A DNA stretch of 64,000 nucleotides from Escherichia coli (GTDB taxonomy: Bacteria; Pseudomonadota; Gammaproteobacteria; Enterobacterales; Enterobacteriaceae), in NCBI RefSeq assembly GCF_003991155.1, contig NZ_CP031297.1; one strand, written 5' to 3'. Both the position numbers and the translations under genes were made by a program. Position 1 is the first letter of the stretch. Each line of letters opens with the position of its first letter. The notes under the pieces were generated by a model. It ran no database searches. It was not told where the DNA came from and worked only from the letters and a program-made list of their open reading frames with translations. Positions 15,016-32,952 of the stretch are shown piece by piece.

Positions 15016-15043
15016 TTTACAGTATCATAAAATGAATCTGTAA
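15016..15043. promoter_or_regulatory. 28-bp palindrome family copy (TTTACAGTATCATAAAATGAATCTGTAAA)
   Basis: Adjacent to parS-like site, upstream of ORF 15057. Confidence 0.5.
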
Positions 15044-15056
15044 AGGTGCGCGATGA

Positions 15057-17828: not shown

Positions 17829-17856
17829 ATTTACAGTATCACATAATGATACTATG
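17829..17856. promoter_or_regulatory. 28-bp palindrome family copy (TTTACAGTATCACATAATGATACTATGA)
   Basis: Upstream of ORF 17886. Confidence 0.45.
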
Positions 17857-17885
17857 ATGTTGTTAATTTACTTGGGGAGGCGCTT

Positions 17886-18149
17886 ATGCTCACTGCTAAA
17901 TGTATAGGGTGCGGATGCACCGATGATCACGCTTGTGTTGAAAACGGTCAACCGTGTCACTGGCTTCGCGTGAATAGAGTGGAAGGTATCGGGGTCTGCT
18001 CTTCGTGCCCGGATGCTCTCAATCAATTCGCATCGACCAGCCAGGAACAAGCAACTGGACAGGATGACTACCGGAACAGTCCAGAATGGAAGGATTTTTC
18101 ATCACGCATTGGTAATGCACTATGCGGGGGCCGGAGCAAAGCAAAGTAA
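17886..18149 (+). CDS. Cys-rich small protein
   Basis: 87 aa; CIGCGC ... CSSC. Confidence 0.4.
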   Translation: MLTAKCIGCGCTDDHACVENGQPCHWLRVNRVEGIGVCSSCPDALNQFASTSQEQATGQDDYRNSPEWKDFSSRIGNALCGGRSKAK

Positions 18150-18154
18150 GGTAA

Positions 18155-18176
18155 AAACGGCTATGCCGTTTTTTAT
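18155..18176 (+). terminator. rho-independent terminator
   Basis: AACGGC-TAT-GCCGTT hairpin followed by T-run. Confidence 0.5.
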
Positions 18177-18183
18177 TTGTCTA

Positions 18184-18226
18184 TTACGGCATCACATTAT
18201 AAGCCTGTAAATGCTGAATCTGTAAT
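18184..18226. promoter_or_regulatory. degenerate 28-bp palindrome family copy
   Basis: TTACGGCATCACATTATAAGCCTGTAAATGCTGAATCTGTAA. Confidence 0.35.
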
Positions 18227-18241
18227 TGCCCAAAATGGGCG
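18227..18241. promoter_or_regulatory. TGCCCAAAATGGGCG motif (third cis-element family)
   Basis: GCCC-N5-GGGC inverted repeat. Confidence 0.4.
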
Positions 18242-18311
18242 TGAGCAGGGGCGGGGTGTGAGGTCGTTCTAAGGCAAAATACTTTGTACTGGCAGAACAA
18301 AGAAAGAATGA

Positions 18312-18331: not shown

Positions 18332-19276
18332 TTGGGGTACGGGATGGAACAAGCAATTCAAAGTTACTTGGCTGACGACCGGCAATATCAAGACAGGATT
18401 ACCGCAGCTCTCAGCCAGGTTGAAGAGAAAGGTGCAGAGTACGAAGCTCTTTGCCAACAGCGTGCTCAGTTGGGGATCTGGCAAAAAATTATAACGTTCT
18501 GGCAGTTTCGTCGAGACATCGCCGTTATACGTTCAGCACTAAAAGGCCATAACAGCGATTTGCGGTATTTGCGCCGTGGGAGAGACCAGCTCAAAGAGGG
18601 ATTGGTTTCTCGGGCCGTGAAGCAAGCGATTGACGGTAGCCAGATTCTGGAACGAATCACCCAAGCTCAAGATAGGCTTGACGCCGCATCTCGACTCCAC
18701 GAGAGCAACAAGCGACTGGTGGACATGGGGCAAAAAGCCTTACGTGAAATCAGTGAGGCCTCTTCCAGTATTTCATCAGCACAAACAATGGAGGTTCTCG
18801 ACCTTGTGACTGACAACAAGGGCATTTCCGTCATGTCGTCGATGTCAAACTCCTCGGCCAGCAGTGAAATAGACGATGCGAAGAGAGCTGTGAAAGCCTT
18901 CGCAAATGCGCTGGGGGATCATCGTGACATTGTGGGCTCACTGCACCACTCAATGGCAACTGAGTTTATCGATCTGGGTATGGACTTTGCCGGTTTGAAT
19001 GATGGTTTCGACTTTGGGAGCGTCTTCTCGCTGTTCAGCTTGTCGTCTGCCAGTTCCTCTCTGGACAAAGTAGAGTCTCGCGTTGAATCTCTGATGCCAG
19101 ATCTAAGACGAGCCGCCTCCAATTCGGCAGCAGAGTATGCCCGTGTTAACGAAGAGTTCTTTGGCCTAAAACAACAGGCCTGTTGCCAAGTGCATGAGTT
19201 GCTGGTGACAAATGGTATAGACGTGTCAGTCAAGCGCGTTGAGTCCGCCGTGAACAGCTACAGAGTTGGAAGGTGA
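18332..19276 (+). CDS. hypothetical protein (coiled-coil-rich)
   Basis: 314-aa ORF. Confidence 0.45.
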   Translation: MGYGMEQAIQSYLADDRQYQDRITAALSQVEEKGAEYEALCQQRAQLGIWQKIITFWQFRRDIAVIRSALKGHNSDLRYLRRGRDQLKEGLVSRAVKQAIDGSQILERITQAQDRLDAASRLHESNKRLVDMGQKALREISEASSSISSAQTMEVLDLVTDNKGISVMSSMSNSSASSEIDDAKRAVKAFANALGDHRDIVGSLHHSMATEFIDLGMDFAGLNDGFDFGSVFSLFSLSSASSSLDKVESRVESLMPDLRRAASNSAAEYARVNEEFFGLKQQACCQVHELLVTNGIDVSVKRVESAVNSYRVGR

Positions 19277-19277
19277 T

Positions 19278-19307
19278 ATTTACAGCATCATAAAATGAAC
19301 TTATGAT
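19278..19307. promoter_or_regulatory. 28-bp palindrome family copy (TTTACAGCATCATAAAATGAACTTATGATG)
   Basis: Upstream of AAA+ ATPase gene. Confidence 0.5.
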
Positions 19308-19349
19308 GTGAGGTGATCAACAAGTCGAAATTTATTTAAAGGATAAGCG

Positions 19350-20813
19350 ATGAGCGATATTACACAGCAAATGGACAAACTTGAGATTCCAATCAAGTTG
19401 TCCTTTCCAGTCATCAACGTTAGCACTTTTGAGCTGGGCCGTGCAGAGAGCGTTTTCTCTGACATTGCAAAGAAAGTCGGCAAGCACTTTATTGTGATGC
19501 CATTCAAGAAGCTGCCCGATCCAGGCACGATGAAGGCAATGGTGGACGAGTCCAAGAAGTCCTCCAAAAACGGTGTTGTCGTGTTCGACACTTTCTTTTT
19601 CGACCGACAACGTGCAAACCCGGAAACACTCCCAGCCCTCAAGTCATCACTGACCTATCTGGAGAATGAGGGGATCAACTACATCATCGCTGGCAAAGAC
19701 GTCTTCAATGAAGAGTTCGTTTATCACATCGATCTCCCGGCTATGAGCAATCAGGAAATCCTGAAACTGCTCCAGACCTGTGAAGATAACGTGAAAGATG
19801 GTGGAGTCTTCGAGAGCAACGAACGTGCTGTCATCGCAAACCACGCCCTGGGCTTGTCACACACCCAGATGAAGAACGTCTTCACCTATTCCGCTTACTT
19901 GAAATTCAAGGGTGAAGAATACCTGGGCGAGATCCGAAAAGAAAAAGCTCACATCTTGCGTGATGTCGGCCTCGATGTGCTTGAGGCCATTGATATTGGG
20001 AATGTCGGTGGGCTCGAAAACCTCAAGGAGTTTCTCCAGATACGTAAAGCCGGTTGGGACAAAGACCTTCCGGTAAAAGGTGTCCTTCTGGCCGGTGTAC
20101 CTGGTGGTGGTAAATCGCTGACGGCAAAAGCCGCTGCCGGTGTACTTGGCACTACCTTGGTTCGCCTGGATATGGGCCGTTTCTATAGTAAGTATCTCGG
20201 TGAAACCGAGCGCCAGTTCAATCGTGCATTGCAGACCATTGAGCAGATCGCACCCGTTGTTGTGTTGATTGACGAGATGGAGAAGTTTTTTGGTAATGCC
20301 GATGGCGAACACGAAGTATCCAAGCGCCTGCTGGGCTCTTTCCTCTACTGGCTTCAAGAGCGCAAGAAGAAGATCTTCATTGTGGCGACGGCCAACCGGG
20401 TTCAGTCGCTGCCTCCTGAATTGATGCGAGCTGGCCGCTGGGACCGAGCATTCTTCATTGATCTGCCAAGTGTGGCTGAGCGCCAGAAGATTTTCGAGAT
20501 CCACCTCGCCAAGCAGAAGGCCAACATCGCCGCGTTCGATATGCCTACGCTACTGCGTACCACCGAGGGATACACCGGGGCAGAGATTGAACAGGCCGTC
20601 ATTGACGCGATGTATCTGGCGAACGCTCAGGACAAAGAGCTCAACAATGAAGCGCTGGTGGATGCGGTCACTCGCATTACCCCGACCAGTGAAACTCGCC
20701 GAGAAGACATCAACCAGATTCGCAGTTTGCGGGATCAAGGCTTCTATCCGGCCAATAACTTCGATGTTCAAGAGCAGAATGGCTCTGGACGAAAACTCGC
20801 CATCGAGGACTAA
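19350..20813 (+). CDS. AAA+ ATPase, classic clade (Ycf46-like)
   Basis: 487 aa; Walker A GVPGGGKS, Walker B VVLIDEMEK, SRH ATANRVQSLPPELMRAGRWDRAFFIDLP; ~230-aa unassigned N-domain. Confidence 0.8.
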   Translation: MSDITQQMDKLEIPIKLSFPVINVSTFELGRAESVFSDIAKKVGKHFIVMPFKKLPDPGTMKAMVDESKKSSKNGVVVFDTFFFDRQRANPETLPALKSSLTYLENEGINYIIAGKDVFNEEFVYHIDLPAMSNQEILKLLQTCEDNVKDGGVFESNERAVIANHALGLSHTQMKNVFTYSAYLKFKGEEYLGEIRKEKAHILRDVGLDVLEAIDIGNVGGLENLKEFLQIRKAGWDKDLPVKGVLLAGVPGGGKSLTAKAAAGVLGTTLVRLDMGRFYSKYLGETERQFNRALQTIEQIAPVVVLIDEMEKFFGNADGEHEVSKRLLGSFLYWLQERKKKIFIVATANRVQSLPPELMRAGRWDRAFFIDLPSVAERQKIFEIHLAKQKANIAAFDMPTLLRTTEGYTGAEIEQAVIDAMYLANAQDKELNNEALVDAVTRITPTSETRREDINQIRSLRDQGFYPANNFDVQEQNGSGRKLAIED

Positions 20814-20874
20814 GCGATTAACTTTGTCATGCCGGAACACGGCATGACCCCCGAAACAACTCAGGAGTGATGAG

Positions 20875-21267
20875 ATGAGCCATATCGTAAAAGGCAAGGT
20901 GCAGGTCGCCTACAAAGACAAAGAGCTGCTGTTGAAGGCTCTGGAGGGAGTTGGCGTCGTTGTTGAAAACGAAAAGCTATACCGCGTGGGCGCTGGCTAC
21001 ACCTTCGAGAAATACCCGATTGTTCTGATCGACCAGAACAACAAGGAGCACCGGATTGGCTACAAGGAAAAAAACGGTGTTTGGGAGCAGTACCAGGAAA
21101 ACTACGGCTCTTATGGCCGCTGGACGCAGCAGGCAAGCAGCAAGGTGCAGGATCGCTACATTGCCTTCCACTACGAGCAGCAGTTGAAAGAGGAAGGTTT
21201 CAGCGTGACGGTGAAGCAGCATCACGATGGCACTTTGGAACTGGAAGCTGAGGAAGCTGTTTGGTAA
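20875..21267 (+). CDS. small conserved protein, DUF1257-like
   Basis: 130 aa; N-terminus MSHIVKGKV..LLLKALEGVG resembles DUF1257 as I recall it; own RBS. Confidence 0.5.
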   Translation: MSHIVKGKVQVAYKDKELLLKALEGVGVVVENEKLYRVGAGYTFEKYPIVLIDQNNKEHRIGYKEKNGVWEQYQENYGSYGRWTQQASSKVQDRYIAFHYEQQLKEEGFSVTVKQHHDGTLELEAEEAVW

Positions 21268-21315
21268 TAGCGCCAAGGCAATCAGATTAGTTGAACTTAA
21301 CGACGAGGTGACAAA

Positions 21316-21510
21316 GTGAAAAAGGTAAACATCAAGATCAAGGGCGGCAAGATTGCTGCCGATTTCACGGGGTTTCAGGGTAAGACCTGTGAAGCGCTGG
21401 AGCAGCGTATTCGCCCGGAAGAGCTCGAAGTCGAAGAAAAAGAGCTGAAACCCGAGTACCACTTCAATGCTGGTCAAACCCAGCACGAAACGGAACAGAA
21501 CGAATGGTGA
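21316..21510 (+). CDS. small conserved protein, DUF2997-like (GTG start)
   Basis: 64 aa; MKKVNIKIKGGKIAADFTGFQGKTC; RBS GAGGTG. Confidence 0.45.
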   Translation: MKKVNIKIKGGKIAADFTGFQGKTCEALEQRIRPEELEVEEKELKPEYHFNAGQTQHETEQNEW

Positions 21511-22688
21511 TGAGAAGGACAGGGCGCGTCCCCCTTCTTTTGCTGGTTGGTCTCATGGTCGCAGCTCCTGCGGCCTTTGCCAGTGACTTTGTGACTGGCG
21601 TAATGGTGGGGCAAATGCTCTCAGATGACTCAGGCAGCAAGAAGGTAGAGGACACTGGCCCGGAGAGCAAAACGGTCATTGATTACCATGACGGTCAGCC
21701 AGTTGTGACCAAAGTGGAGGCCTTCAAAAGCAATAAATGGCGCAAACTGGATGGCCCTCAGGGCGGCTATTTTGTTTGCCCAGGTGAATACCGTAGCTAT
21801 TCGGGAAGGCTGCGTTGTCGCGTCCATGATGACGGGCTCAATGGCTTTATGGGCGGTATGACTGATGCTCAGGAGCTACCGCTCCAAGAAGCTCTGACCA
21901 AGTTGGAAGGTAAACCCATCTCCCTGCAAACCATTGAAGTCCACGGGAACAACCTGGCAGTCAAATACCAGTTAGCACCACCAGCACAAACGCACGTCAA
22001 AACTCAGGACCTGGGGGTGGTTAAGCAAGATGGTGAAATGCAGAAGGTTGCCAGCCAACCACCAGCGCTATCCATAGAGACTGCACCAAAGAGTGAACCT
22101 CCCAAGCAGATTGGTGCTGCACAAGACACCGACCGCAATACCAGTGCGTTTCAAAGTCCGTTCGAGGAGGTAAGTGACTCCATGATCGGTCTAATGGATA
22201 GCTCTTTCGTCAAAGTCATAGCGGGGTTGATGCTGGTGTTTGGGGTTGCTAGTGGAATTATGAGGCAGAGCCCATCAGGAATTGTGATGGGGATAATGCC
22301 TGCAATTATGATCATGACCGCGCCAACGGTTATTCGTACCATGTTCGATACAGGCGCGGCCAGTACCAAGCCAGTGGAAGATAGCGGAAGCTCATTTCCT
22401 TTCTTCTTGGTGGCAATAGTGCCGGTGCTGATTTTCTTTGCCTATAGAGCTTTTATGAACAACCGGAGCGACTCCGAAATTGATGAGTTGTTAAGAGAAG
22501 CCCGACGTGCTGAAAGGGCTGAACGACCAAGCAATGAGCCTCCCTCAGTGGATGAACTCCGTGAGCGCCAGCAACAAAACCCAGAAAGAGAACCGGTGGT
22601 TGTCAGCTCATCAGCTCCGGCACCAAAGGTGCAAAAGGAAGAGCCAATCGAAGTACAGCCAGGCAAGCGCAAAATTATTTTGGATTAG
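21504..22688 (+). CDS. membrane protein with periplasmic N-domain and cytoplasmic tail ending PIEVQPGKRKIILD
   Basis: 394 aa; signal peptide, ~200-aa periplasmic region, hydrophobic segments, charged tail. Confidence 0.55.
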   Translation: MVMRRTGRVPLLLLVGLMVAAPAAFASDFVTGVMVGQMLSDDSGSKKVEDTGPESKTVIDYHDGQPVVTKVEAFKSNKWRKLDGPQGGYFVCPGEYRSYSGRLRCRVHDDGLNGFMGGMTDAQELPLQEALTKLEGKPISLQTIEVHGNNLAVKYQLAPPAQTHVKTQDLGVVKQDGEMQKVASQPPALSIETAPKSEPPKQIGAAQDTDRNTSAFQSPFEEVSDSMIGLMDSSFVKVIAGLMLVFGVASGIMRQSPSGIVMGIMPAIMIMTAPTVIRTMFDTGAASTKPVEDSGSSFPFFLVAIVPVLIFFAYRAFMNNRSDSEIDELLREARRAERAERPSNEPPSVDELRERQQQNPEREPVVVSSSAPAPKVQKEEPIEVQPGKRKIILD

Positions 22689-22699
22689 TGGGGTAGGTT

Positions 22700-23047
22700 A
22701 TGAGCAAAAAGCGCATCGTAATCAAAAATGGTGAGGTCTGCGGGTTTGCCGATGAGGTTTCCTTCAAAGGCCTTGAAGTGCAGGAATACAGTAAAACAAG
22801 GGTTTCGCGCATCGTGCCGACGAGCGGCATTCTAATGATTGCGTTCTATGTTATTCGCGGACTTTGTTCAGACGAGTCAAAGATTGCGGCATGGACTCGT
22901 GTTTGGCGTTGCCAGTGGAAGGTGCTGATCGACGGTAAAAGCTATGGACCATTCAGCAGTCGTGCGGATGCTATCTCGTTCGAGAAGGACGAGATCTACA
23001 AACAAGGCAAATTCTTTGCCGATGCCACTCACGAGGCGGCAGTATGA
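22700..23047 (+). CDS. hypothetical protein
   Basis: 115-aa ORF. Confidence 0.4.
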   Translation: MSKKRIVIKNGEVCGFADEVSFKGLEVQEYSKTRVSRIVPTSGILMIAFYVIRGLCSDESKIAAWTRVWRCQWKVLIDGKSYGPFSSRADAISFEKDEIYKQGKFFADATHEAAV

Positions 23048-23472
23048 TGACACGGGCGGCTATGGCCGCGCTGTTATCCGCGTTGGTAATAGGCCTTGTG
23101 TCTGATTTGTCCGCACAAGAGCTGGTGGTAAGCCAGGTGGCTATAGACAAGTCCACTGAGGTGGAGAAAGAAGCTACCTTCCACAACCGCAAGTGGGTGT
23201 TAAGGACGGGGCAGGTTAGTGGATTCTTCATCTGCCAAGGAGATAACAAAGACATTTACTACCGGCATGACAGGGTGGGCGCTCACTGCCAGAAGACATC
23301 GACTGGGTGGCGCAATGTACTGGGTCTCAGGGACGATGTTCCGGAAGTTGAGCTGAGCGTGTACCTGGGGACCGTTGAAGGTGTCCCCGTGAAAGTCCTT
23401 CATCAGGAAGTGGATGGTTACGATCTGAAAGTGCAGTACAAGGTTGCACGTAAAGGGTCAGCAAATGAGTGA
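23044..23472 (+). CDS. secreted hypothetical protein
   Basis: 142 aa; signal peptide MMTRAAMAALLSALVIGLVSDLSAQ. Confidence 0.45.
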   Translation: MMTRAAMAALLSALVIGLVSDLSAQELVVSQVAIDKSTEVEKEATFHNRKWVLRTGQVSGFFICQGDNKDIYYRHDRVGAHCQKTSTGWRNVLGLRDDVPEVELSVYLGTVEGVPVKVLHQEVDGYDLKVQYKVARKGSANE

Positions 23473-24028
23473 GAGTGTGCGTCGGTCAACGCCGATGGTA
23501 AAGATTAAAATCCTGCCGAGTTTCGTAGGGGTTCCCTTCCCGTCGGTGCTACTTATCGTTGCGGGGCTCCTTAATGGCCCTTTGTGGGGCTTTGCCGCAT
23601 TCGTCTTTCATATCGTCATCAAGCGGTACATCTACAGAGAATACCGGAGGTTGCCATATCCGATGCCAACCGGCTCAAGGCCTATGGATGAGTTGAGCGA
23701 GCTCCTTGTAAAGGGGATACCGGAGGAATTTTTCCGGCGGCTTGACGCAGCTTGCAGCTCTGATGCGTCAGTACAAATAACCTGCCCAAAGAAATACCGG
23801 CTGCTCAAAATGTCGTTGAATCGCTATGCCAACCGCGCTGGTTGTTACCCGCAGTTCCGGGAGGGGGATGAAATAGCGATTGAGGTAACAGAGCAGAGAC
23901 CAAGAAAAGCAGGAGCAGGGAAGGGCTTTCCAAGTATTCAAGTTCTGAAAGCGTCAGAGGGTGTTCTGAGTGAACCGGAGCAGCCTATCGAAATTCAGAA
24001 AGATAAGCGCAAGATTATCTTGGATTGA
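23465..24028 (+). CDS. membrane protein with C-terminal tail PIEIQKDKRKIILD
   Basis: ~187 aa from ATG 23465; N-terminal TM helices; tail paralogous to 21504..22688. Confidence 0.5.
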   Translation: MSESVRRSTPMVKIKILPSFVGVPFPSVLLIVAGLLNGPLWGFAAFVFHIVIKRYIYREYRRLPYPMPTGSRPMDELSELLVKGIPEEFFRRLDAACSSDASVQITCPKKYRLLKMSLNRYANRAGCYPQFREGDEIAIEVTEQRPRKAGAGKGFPSIQVLKASEGVLSEPEQPIEIQKDKRKIILD

Positions 24029-24039
24029 GGTGGGTTGGA

Positions 24040-24609
24040 ATGCGGTCATTTTTATACAGAATATTGCTTCTTTGCTTCGTCATTATCGTCCAGATAGGGC
24101 TAATCGCCATTGATGCGAGCCCGTTGGTTGTTGCTATGTTCCTCTCGCTAACAGCTTTAGTCGCTGGGGTCTGGATGGCGTACCTTCATTCCCGATTTTT
24201 GATGGCGGTGACTCCAGTAGTTATCTCTGTGCTAATGGCGACCCTCGCCATGAAAATGTTTGAGCCGAGACTCTTTGTTTCTGCCAGCGAAAAAGGCTGG
24301 TTCCCTTTGTCATTGTTCGTCTCGATACCGTTTTACTTCTACTTGAGTTACTTGCTTGAGATAGAGGAGAAGAGACGTACATTCCGGGCCAATGTGATTG
24401 GGTTTTTGCGTGGAGTTTCGGAAGAGATCCGTCGTTCAACCAGAGAGCATAGAGATCAAGGTGAGATAAGACACGGTGGAACAGAGCTGGGGAGTATTGA
24501 CGAACTACAAAGGGGCGAGGCCAAAGAGCCAGAAGTCATCAGCTCTACATCGGACCAGAAAGAACAAGGCACTCCCAAGCGAGACAAGAGAAAAATCATT
24601 CTGGACTGA
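24040..24609 (+). CDS. membrane protein with C-terminal tail KRDKRKIILD
   Basis: ~189 aa from ATG 24040 (RBS GAGGTG); several TM helices; same terminal motif. Confidence 0.5.
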   Translation: MRSFLYRILLLCFVIIVQIGLIAIDASPLVVAMFLSLTALVAGVWMAYLHSRFLMAVTPVVISVLMATLAMKMFEPRLFVSASEKGWFPLSLFVSIPFYFYLSYLLEIEEKRRTFRANVIGFLRGVSEEIRRSTREHRDQGEIRHGGTELGSIDELQRGEAKEPEVISSTSDQKEQGTPKRDKRKIILD

Positions 24610-24611
24610 AC

Positions 24612-25157
24612 ATGGAACAAATCAGAAAAGGCTTAACCCTCGAATACGCAAAAGAGAAGCGTGAGAAGCTCTTGGCGGAGCTCAAATCAGATGAACACTA
24701 CAGCCAGACTGAAACAGTAGCCTATGGGCACCACGACCCGCTCAGCGTTCCTGTGGCAGCCTGCGATAGTTGTCATGGCCGGGCGCAAATGCAGAAGGTT
24801 ATAGGTCCTCCTGTGCGCTGGAATATGGTCTGCCTGGGTTGTGGGAAGGCGATCCAACAAATCCAGAAACGACCGTGGCAAGCAGCAATGGCGTGGAACC
24901 AAATTAACTTGGGAACACAGGACTACAGACAACTGCCCCTCTTTGGACTTGGGAGTCTGTCTCCTGAATCAGCAAGACAGAGAATGGTGGGAATACGCAG
25001 GAACCTGGAGCTGAGAAAGAGCCTCGCCGGTATCGAGAGGACGATAGCCCACAAGGAAGGTCAACGCCCACCAGGGAAAGAGTACCAGCAACGACTGGAA
25101 GCATATCTGCAATGGGCCATGCTGGCGCTGAGGTTGCTCAAAGTCAAAGCAAGTTAG
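24612..25157 (+). CDS. hypothetical protein with Cys4 zinc-ribbon-like motif
   Basis: 181 aa; CDSCHG ... CLGCG. Confidence 0.45.
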   Translation: MEQIRKGLTLEYAKEKREKLLAELKSDEHYSQTETVAYGHHDPLSVPVAACDSCHGRAQMQKVIGPPVRWNMVCLGCGKAIQQIQKRPWQAAMAWNQINLGTQDYRQLPLFGLGSLSPESARQRMVGIRRNLELRKSLAGIERTIAHKEGQRPPGKEYQQRLEAYLQWAMLALRLLKVKAS

Positions 25158-25176
25158 TGGTGAGAAGGAAGAGAGA

Positions 25177-25206
25177 ACCCGGTACTGTAAAGCGCCGGGT
25201 TTTTTA
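25177..25206 (+). terminator. rho-independent terminator
   Basis: ACCCGG...CCGGGT stem followed by T6. Confidence 0.5.
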
Positions 25207-25216
25207 TGCCGCCCTG

Positions 25217-25244
25217 TTTACAGTATCAAAAAGTGATGCTATAA
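25217..25244. promoter_or_regulatory. 28-bp palindrome family copy (TTTACAGTATCAAAAAGTGATGCTATAAA)
   Basis: Upstream of ParB-like gene 25274. Confidence 0.5.
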
Positions 25245-25273
25245 AGTGAGCAAGTCACAAGGAGAACCAACGA

Positions 25274-32921: not shown

Positions 32922-32952
32922 TATCATAGAATCATAAAATGATGCTGTAAAA
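32922..32952. promoter_or_regulatory. 28-bp palindrome family copy (ATCATAGAATCATAAAATGATGCTGTAAAAG)
   Basis: Immediately upstream of ORF 32953. Confidence 0.5.

Follow-up and report, generated by a model that had tools for sequence, protein, structure and literature searches.

A Ycf46-type AAA+ ATPase/DUF1257/DUF2997 gene trio of IncA/C plasmids: a candidate accessory remodelling module predicted to be co-regulated with conjugation

The three genes and their families

The DNA analysed here is a 64-kb window from Escherichia coli (contig NZ_CP031297.1), which is 100% identical to IncC (A/C2) conjugative plasmids and whose coordinates are those of Aeromonas hydrophila pR148 (NC_019380.1). Three consecutive genes on its plus strand encode an AAA+ ATPase and two small partner proteins, and this trio is the subject of the present analysis (Table 1). 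In an earlier note, prepared from the letters alone, it had been described as a module of 487-, 130- and 64-aa proteins with short gaps and separate ribosome-binding sites. Open reading frames (ORFs) of exactly these lengths are present at the positions given there, separated by 61 nt (ATPase/130-aa) and 48 nt (130-aa/64-aa), with a Shine-Dalgarno-like sequence in front of each small partner gene. The RefSeq labels are “AAA family ATPase”, “hypothetical protein” and “DUF2997 domain-containing protein”, respectively. On the combined evidence of hidden Markov models (HMMs), profiles and folds, the trio joins a classic-clade AAA+ protein to DUF1257-like and DUF2997-like partners, as the note had suggested, and is very probably the IncA/C version of an ancient Ycf46-type module consisting of a tandem AAA+ protein, a DUF1257/Ycf35 protein and a DUF2997 protein. 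The note knew of no experimentally assigned function; likewise, no published biochemical function for the trio or its families was found in a literature search.

The ATPase matches the Pfam families AAA (PF00004, 9e-27) and AAA_lid_3 (PF17862, 9e-5), and the motifs GVPGGGKS, VVLIDEMEK and RAGRWDRAFFIDLP, quoted previously, are all found. In an alignment of 104 homologues, the Walker A motif (G-x-x-G-x-G-K-[ST]), the D-E of Walker B, the sensor-1 Asn and the arginines R360 and R363 of the second region of homology (SRH) are invariant or nearly so, while the Gly and the last Glu of the pore loop (K-[Y/L]-[LVI]-G-E-[TS]-E) are conserved. With the catalytic and pore-loop motifs intact, the protein is predicted to be an active AAA+ enzyme and should thread its substrates. 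The N-terminal domain of ~230 aa, which had been left unassigned, proved to be a degenerate AAA+ domain from which the Walker motifs have gone. In NCBIfam and PDB sequence searches, the active module (residues ~200-450) is nearest to VAT, p97, Cdc48, AFG2, NSF, PAN and FtsH, the best sequence matches being among tandem classic-clade unfoldases (E 1e-45 to 1e-38). The FtsH, PAN, Cdc48 and CdvC equivalogs matched the AAA module alone, at 67-104 bits and far under the cutoffs of 500-1008. Alignment over the full length, N-terminal domain included, is obtained with Ycf46-type proteins of ~500 aa (~34% identity, 92-97% coverage; 92-96% of the query for those encoded beside PF06868 and PF11211 genes), and the N domains of Ycf46-type ATPases can be aligned down to 23% identity. 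In their sources, homologues are named “AAA domain-containing protein ycf46” (P0109) or “SpoVK/Ycf46/Vps4 family”.

Compared with tandem AAA+ unfoldases that have one inactive ring (p97/Cdc48/VAT, NSF, Pex1/Pex6, AFG2/Drg1), the pore loop K-Y-L-G-E, Walker A and B, sensor-1 and both SRH arginines are alike, and those enzymes likewise depend on small adaptor cofactors. However, the plasmid ATPase is only ~490 aa long, its first AAA domain lacks any Walker motif, and it has neither the p97-type N domain (double-psi barrel) nor a protease domain nor a membrane anchor. Moreover, DUF1257 and DUF2997 are unrelated to the UBX, SNAP and Ufd1-Npl4 adaptors of the tandem unfoldases.

For the 130-aa protein, direct Pfam, NCBIfam and PADLOC scans gave no match, PF06868 did not match the single sequence even at E<=10, and PHROGs yielded a single weak match (0.049). 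Its close family comprises 44 clusters, none of which bears a Pfam label; in the family alignment, the N-terminus MSHIV(K/R)G and the C-terminal Trp are invariant. When the family profile was searched against 1.84 billion representatives, more distant proteins were reached, 14 of 31 being PF06868/DUF1257. In hhalign, the plasmid family and Pfam-positive DUF1257s were aligned over 126 of 130 columns (99.4%, E 3.3e-21). Furthermore, an AlphaFold2 model (predicted local distance difference test, 80) has dozens of DUF1257/Ycf35 matches in AFDB50, plastid Ycf35 among them, and the N-terminal Met-Ser-His is nearly universal in the DUF1257 superfamily. The DUF1257 assignment thus failed the simple HMM check against PF06868 but was upheld by profile-profile comparison, transitive Pfam matches and predicted fold, and the protein is confirmed as a divergent DUF1257 (Ycf35-like).

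The 64-aa protein matches DUF2997 (PF11211) directly, with a marginal independent E-value of 6.5e-4 over model positions 8-47 of 47. All 12 members of its family that were tested match the same model at E<=0.1, and five of the 12 at E<=0.001, which bears out the DUF2997 assignment. A-D-F-x-G-F-x-G-x-x-C-E is invariant in the family, K-P-E-Y is conserved with Pro alone varying, and the C-terminus carries Trp or Tyr. The protein also aligns with the DUF2997 proteins of the Asgard, phage and metagenomic trios described below. No solved relative of DUF1257 or DUF2997 was found in PDB sequence searches.

The trio in other genomes

Co-occurrence of the three genes as a unit, which the note had proposed, is found in at least six independent contexts, which shows that bacteria, archaea and phages have all conserved it. 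In Pseudomonas (L006-8, L015, L016), Vibrio (L009, L010) and Rheinheimera (L014), the ATPases are 50-66% identical and the gene order is that of the plasmid, an AAA gene followed by genes for proteins of 130-135 and 62-67 aa. In an Asgard archaeon (L011/L012), whose ATPase is 34% identical, the order is DUF1257, DUF2997, AAA, whereas the metagenomic contig L021 has AAA, DUF1257, DUF2997. The phage-like contigs L022/L023 and Pseudomonas phage SM1 display AAA, DUF3150, a ~110-aa gene, DUF1257 and DUF2997. The PF06868 and PF11211 labels of the Asgard, metagenomic and phage-like contigs were precomputed. The small partners of phages SM1 and L338C were recognised with HMMs of our own, the pair from Rhizobium phage L338C being a confirmation outside the HMM training set; pairwise BLASTP to the SM1 and L338C small proteins was insignificant. 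A search for related loci with alignment A1 returned four genomic loci and no viral ones. In mycobacteriophage Corndog and a Streptococcus satellite, the ATPase is present with no partners within 3 kb.

Several variants were encountered in the course of these comparisons. The phage form (L022 2790-4107; L004 4380-5948) is a five-gene variant in which DUF3150 and the ~110-aa gene are inserted after the ATPase; no relation was detectable between the phage DUF3150 and the 314-aa protein upstream of the plasmid trio, or between the phage 109-aa gene and the 115-aa protein downstream of it. In the Asgard contigs (L011/L012, 7639-11735), the trio is followed at once by Mre11-like (Metallophos) and Rad50-like (SMC_N) genes. 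P0188 (L017/L018) is a 331-aa protein with a C-terminal DUF1257 and an unassigned N-terminal extension of ~200 aa, on contigs of only ~1.3 kb. P0206, a 544-aa apparent fusion, was a false positive and corresponds to a Gram-positive pilin.

The closest known counterpart is the cyanobacterial and plastid set of Ycf46, Ycf35 and DUF2997, which comprises the same three families (Synpcc7942_0416-0418; in Synechocystis the cluster DUF2997-ycf35-fed7, listed in PMC4284462), the cyanobacterial genes being taken from published description. The two sets have in common an N-terminal MSH in DUF1257 and a G-x-G-x-x-C core in DUF2997, and a biochemical function is unassigned there as in the plasmid trio. 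Because the gene families and their association have already been catalogued, the module is not categorically new. The plasmid set differs in several respects: its DUF1257 has diverged beyond the reach of the Pfam model, it adds a conserved C-terminal tail, envelope proteins bearing this tail, a 115-aa co-traveller and an activator box of conjugation type, and it is accessory and often lost. Judged by sequence, the subfamily of plasmids and other mobile genetic elements (MGEs) is therefore a distinct variant, characterised by a Pfam-invisible DUF1257, a conserved tail, pilin-like candidate clients that carry it, the 115-aa co-traveller and conjugation-type regulation. What is new here comprises the AcaCD-type box and the terminators that define the operon, the shared tail, a repeated dyad and a loss of ~45%.

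Operon, shared tail and loss within IncA/C plasmids

The region upstream of the trio contains a sequence resembling the binding sites of AcaCD, the activator of conjugation genes. A position weight matrix was derived from seven published sites (PMC4207636 Table S3) mapped onto the window, the new box being excluded; a motif upstream of an operon, with transcription starting ~35 nt downstream, is the criterion for the regulon. The box scored 23.8 bits out of sample, which is above the leave-one-out score of every validated site and above 19.8, the highest value reached in 200 random sequences of 64 kb. Its core, TGCCCAAAATGGGC, is that of the validated vcrx036 box and is perfectly kept in an IncA plasmid of 87% identity. 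The box is missing from the published AcaCD list because pVCR94, the plasmid used for chromatin immunoprecipitation with exonuclease digestion (ChIP-exo), lacks the region. Nine or ten co-directional genes follow the box as far as the terminator at 25172-25205. Transcription is predicted to start at ~18285 under AcaCD control, and at ~19315 if the dyad described below acts as a promoter. Box and terminators together place the trio in a predicted 7-kb operon with pilin-like envelope proteins, which we infer to be part of the AcaCD regulon; an additional conjugation-regulon operon is thus predicted in those IncA/C plasmids that keep the segment.

The palindrome that the note had reported near 19278, and had taken for the trio's own promoter, is real, with arms CATCATAA and TTATGATG within TTTACA-17-TATGAT (19279-19307). 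Four copies of this dyad occur in the window, at 15016-15045, 17830-17859 and 19279-19308 on the plus strand and 32922-32951 on the minus strand, compared with none by chance; the copy at 17830 is a near-identical twin of that upstream of the ATPase gene, and a looser copy lies at ~25216-25245. In IncA, the dyad carries a compensatory change (TCATA/TATGA to TCACA/TGTGA) while the matches to the -35 and -10 elements are weaker. As the dyad is kept while these elements weaken, it may be an operator or an RNA/DNA hairpin as much as a promoter. Thus, the symmetric, promoter-like element stands, being repeated and kept in IncA, whereas independence does not follow, since the trio also lies behind a strong AcaCD-like box within an operon that extends to 25.2 kb. 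The dyad, TTTACAG-ATCA...TGAT-TATGATG, precedes several backbone genes, and its repetition suggests a small regulon under some plasmid regulator. Behind one copy lies an ORF for a Cys-rich 87-aa protein (CxGCGC...C...C...CSSC; 17886-18149, plus strand), which is absent from the pR148 RefSeq annotation. Within the trio itself, the hairpin in the first intergenic gap might stabilise or attenuate the mRNA and so set the ratio of ATPase to partner.

Four proteins of the predicted operon, the ATPase and three envelope proteins, end in the same type of tail: ...GRKLAIED in the ATPase, ...GKRKIILD in the 394-aa protein and ...DKRKIILD in both the 187-aa and the 189-aa protein, with the consensus (K/R)RK-Φ-x-I-(L/E)-D. 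Elsewhere in the window, 835 further ORF-like segments, relaxase included, are all without the motif. In the Pseudomonas, Vibrio and Rheinheimera loci (L006, L009, L014-L016), a tail of the same type is present on the ATPase and on one to three of its neighbours. Among ATPases at >=45% identity, R-[KRQ]-Φ-x-Φ occurs within the last nine residues in 51 of 68, against a background of 0.24%, and looser versions are seen on a few distant ATPases, for example ...ERKLQLEI in Asgard. The HbYX tails of PAN/Rpt, which dock into pockets of the 20S alpha-ring, are likewise short conserved C-terminal peptides on a hexameric AAA+ protein. By pure analogy, the tail could insert into a partner; HbYX is hydrophobic-Tyr-X, whereas the tail here is basic, Φ-x-Φ, acidic, and is also carried by co-encoded membrane proteins.

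The neighbouring genes are listed in Table 1. The 394-aa envelope protein matches the TraA-type pilin model NF041281 at 46.8 bits (cutoff 50; E 2.2e-12; profile positions 7-71 of 75), and in other loci from gammaproteobacteria the trio is followed by weak homologues of this 377/394-aa protein. A paralogue of it has apparently been split between two genes, the 142-aa one with the periplasmic domain and the 189-aa one with the transmembrane (TM) and tail part. The 115-aa protein lies beside the trio in all gammaproteobacterial loci examined (E 1e-33 to 1e-38) and is possibly the fourth member of the core in the MGE subfamily; no match was found in Pfam or NCBIfam, and PHROGs was marginal.

Table 1. 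Positions of the trio, its predicted operon and associated elements in the window
Feature	Position	Strand	Remarks
AAA+ ATPase gene	19350-20813	+	487 aa, ATG
ATPase residues 1-238, degenerate (Walker-less) AAA+ fold domain	19350-20063	+	
ATPase residues 239-487, active classic-clade AAA module and lid	20064-20813	+	C-terminal tail GRKLAIED
Hairpin in ATPase/DUF1257 gap, GC-rich, 9 bp	20826-20848	+	no U tract
130-aa protein gene, DUF1257-like (Ycf35-like), divergent	20875-21267	+	ATG
64-aa protein gene, DUF2997	21316-21510	+	GTG start
Bidirectional intrinsic-terminator-like hairpin closing preceding unit	18153-18173		9-bp stem, T runs on both strands
AcaCD-type activator box GTAATTGCCCAAAATGGGCGTGAGCAGGG, predicted conjugation-regulon promoter of operon	18222-18250	+	
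310/314-aa hypothetical protein, first gene after AcaCD-like box	18344-19276	+	no family match
Dyad, sigma70-promoter-like element, directly 5' of ATPase gene	19279-19308	+	TTTACA-17-TATGAT, arms CATCATAA/TTATGATG
394-aa envelope protein (377 aa from RefSeq start 21555)	21504-22688	+	signal peptide, periplasmic domain, TraA-pilin-like TM, cytoplasmic tail KRKIILD
115-aa protein, co-traveller of trio	22700-23047	+	no family match
142-aa secreted paralogue of periplasmic domain of 394-aa protein	23044-23472	+	E 6.5e-11
187-aa membrane protein	23465-24028	+	ends KRKIILD
189-aa membrane paralogue of TM and tail part of 394-aa protein	24040-24609	+	ends KRKIILD
181-aa hypothetical protein, last gene before terminator	24612-25157	+	
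Strong intrinsic-terminator-like hairpin, predicted operon 3' end	25172-25205	+	U run
Tail-bearing C-termini	20790-20813, 22665-22688, 24005-24028, 24586-24609	+	(G/D)(K/R)RK(I/L)(I/A)I(L/E)D

The distribution of the trio among IncA/C plasmids bears on its importance. In the gene table of pVCR94, a toxin-antitoxin pair, sul2 and vcrx030 are followed by parA (PMC4207636 Dataset S1); by this gene order, the prototype lacks ~14.5 kb, the trio included. pVCR94 transfers at ~3.5e-3. In PLSDB, the IncA/C repA is present in 1051 records, parAB in 1096 and the trio in 584, so that ~45% of IncA/C plasmids are without the trio region, and the share predicted to be conjugative is ~92% both with and without it. 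A breakpoint near 17945 is shared by ~400 IncC plasmids, in which the backbone up to ~28.9 kb is replaced by a resistance island; at this junction (~17945 to ~28935), a sul2-type island abuts a 312-nt gene before parA (L025, NZ_CP022063.1; pVCR94). Since plasmids without the trio are frequent and equally predicted to be conjugative, the module is accessory. The best explanation is that replication, partition and basal conjugation can all proceed without it. It is unlikely to serve transfer or maintenance as a core function, which also applies to the plasmid-maintenance role that the note had considered plausible, given the conjugative pVCR94 among those without the region.

Possible mechanism and competing explanations

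The picture which we favour is that of an accessory AAA+ remodelling machine, co-regulated with conjugation and equipped with two adaptor-like partners; in full mechanistic detail it is offered tentatively. The ATPase would act as a double-ring hexameric remodeller. DUF1257, with a KA1-like alpha/beta binding fold, and DUF2997, of ~60 aa with one invariant Cys, would be its obligate partners, small and non-enzymatic, acting as adaptors or regulators. As an accessory member of the AcaCD regulon, the module of IncA/C plasmids would be co-transcribed with envelope proteins, one of them pilin-like. The shared tail could serve as a docking code that brings the ATPase and the cytoplasmic tails of the membrane proteins together on one partner, in the simplest case the DUF1257/DUF2997 adaptor. 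Once transfer functions are switched on, the motor would assemble, extract or recycle the tail-bearing envelope proteins. In its most specific form, the tail (K/R)(K/R/Q)-Φ-x-Φ-(D/E)-COOH would be an address read by DUF1257/DUF2997, so that an adaptor-guided AAA+ machine extracts or assembles tagged envelope proteins, pilin-like ones included, on conjugative elements. This address code is speculative and, on balance, quite unlikely to be correct as formulated. If true, it would be the first mechanistic handle on Ycf46/Ycf35, the function of which has been unknown since the first plastid genomes.

A number of points weigh against the remodelling picture. Binding of the partners to the ATPase, or to the tails, is a supposition. 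The AcaCD box is a prediction, the plasmid of the published ChIP-exo and RNA-seq work being without the region, and the trio could escape AcaCD control through the internal promoter-like dyad. Of 36 more distant Ycf46 ATPases, just two have the strict tail motif, and pilin-like neighbours are missing from the phage, archaeal and cyanobacterial trios; any link to the envelope is thus lineage-specific. Tail sharing among the membrane proteins is partly a matter of paralogy, which cannot explain the tail of the ATPase. Finally, the frequent loss of the module may merely reflect deletions beside the resistance island and not a low value.

The question is of practical interest, for IncA/C plasmids are major vehicles of carbapenemases and multidrug resistance whose backbone consists mostly of genes without a known function; >580 sequenced plasmids carry the module. 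A copy on an easily handled E. coli plasmid represents a tractable system with a natural deletion control, adjacent candidate clients and a candidate recognition peptide, through which the activity of Ycf46/Ycf35/DUF2997 could be revealed, together with any effect on plasmid transfer, establishment or cost.

A role in anti-defence or establishment, in which motor and adaptors dismantle or unfold a host immunity or stress complex after DNA entry, or early in phage infection, is unlikely. It would be consistent with the presence of the module on plasmids, genomic islands and lytic or temperate phages, with the orphan methyltransferases among the neighbours of the trio, with laboratory dispensability, which is typical for such cargo, and with the known IncC anti-restriction operon vcrx087-093, which is likewise AcaCD-driven. 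In the same plasmid family, the IncC hde locus Vcrx089/Vcrx090 (MoxR-type AAA_5 and CbbQ_C) is also an AAA+ protein with a small partner, AcaCD-activated and accessory for transfer into defended hosts. However, Vcrx089 belongs to the MoxR/AAA_5 clade and not to classic AAA, the locus lies outside the region, the partners are unrelated, and a phenotype has been demonstrated for Vcrx089/090 and none for the trio; identification of the trio with the published IncC anti-restriction ATPase was accordingly rejected. No similarity to any known anti-defence protein was found, and the published transposon-sequencing screen was performed on pVCR94, which lacks the trio genes. Moreover, as a core stress-induced operon in cyanobacteria, and in plastids and archaea too, the module fits a general cellular activity better.

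Such a general activity is itself unlikely. As has been proposed for cyanobacterial Ycf46, the trio would remodel a housekeeping target so that growth slows or stress is survived, and mobile elements would use it to tune the state of the host or cut the cost of carriage. In Synechococcus, severe oxidative stress, darkness and (p)ppGpp all induce the three-gene ycf46 operon, whose expression anti-correlates with that of ribosomal genes, and Ycf46 has been reported to interact with KaiC and to affect CO2 utilisation (bioRxiv 10.1101/2025.07.21.665879); the conservation of the trio across the domains of life agrees with this. The cyanobacterial evidence is nevertheless correlative, and the plasmid subfamily is just ~34% identical to cyanobacterial-type proteins. 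The lineage-specific tail, the envelope neighbours and the AcaCD-like box point rather to a plasmid-specific client.

Anti-phage defence, with an AAA+ sensor or effector that aborts infection as in IetAS (Ietswaart), is improbable. Both systems have a classic AAA module and occur on mobile elements, and the IetA model of PADLOC (E 6e-21) and the IteA model of NCBIfam match the ATPase. These matches are confined to residues ~243-462, that is, to the generic AAA module, and for IteA the 65.6 bits obtained compare with a cutoff of 510. No IetS serine protease gene is adjacent, the partners are others, and no effector domain is present. It is true that the Vibrio locus lies near genes for a BrxR-type regulator and nucleases, and that MGE islands often bear defence cargo; PADLOC, however, is blank for the partners and neighbours of the trio, which is moreover encoded by lytic phages, plastids and cyanobacteria.

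It is very improbable that the tail is a type IV secretion signal by which the ATPase and the tail-bearing proteins are exported to the recipient in mating: a basic C-terminal motif is common to otherwise unrelated proteins of a predicted AcaCD-activated operon, and some type IV secretion substrates do use C-terminal basic signals, but all but one of the four proteins with the tail are membrane proteins, polytopic or anchored, and hence poor substrates, the relaxase is among the ORFs that do not carry the motif, and the same tail occurs in loci where no conjugation genes are evident nearby.

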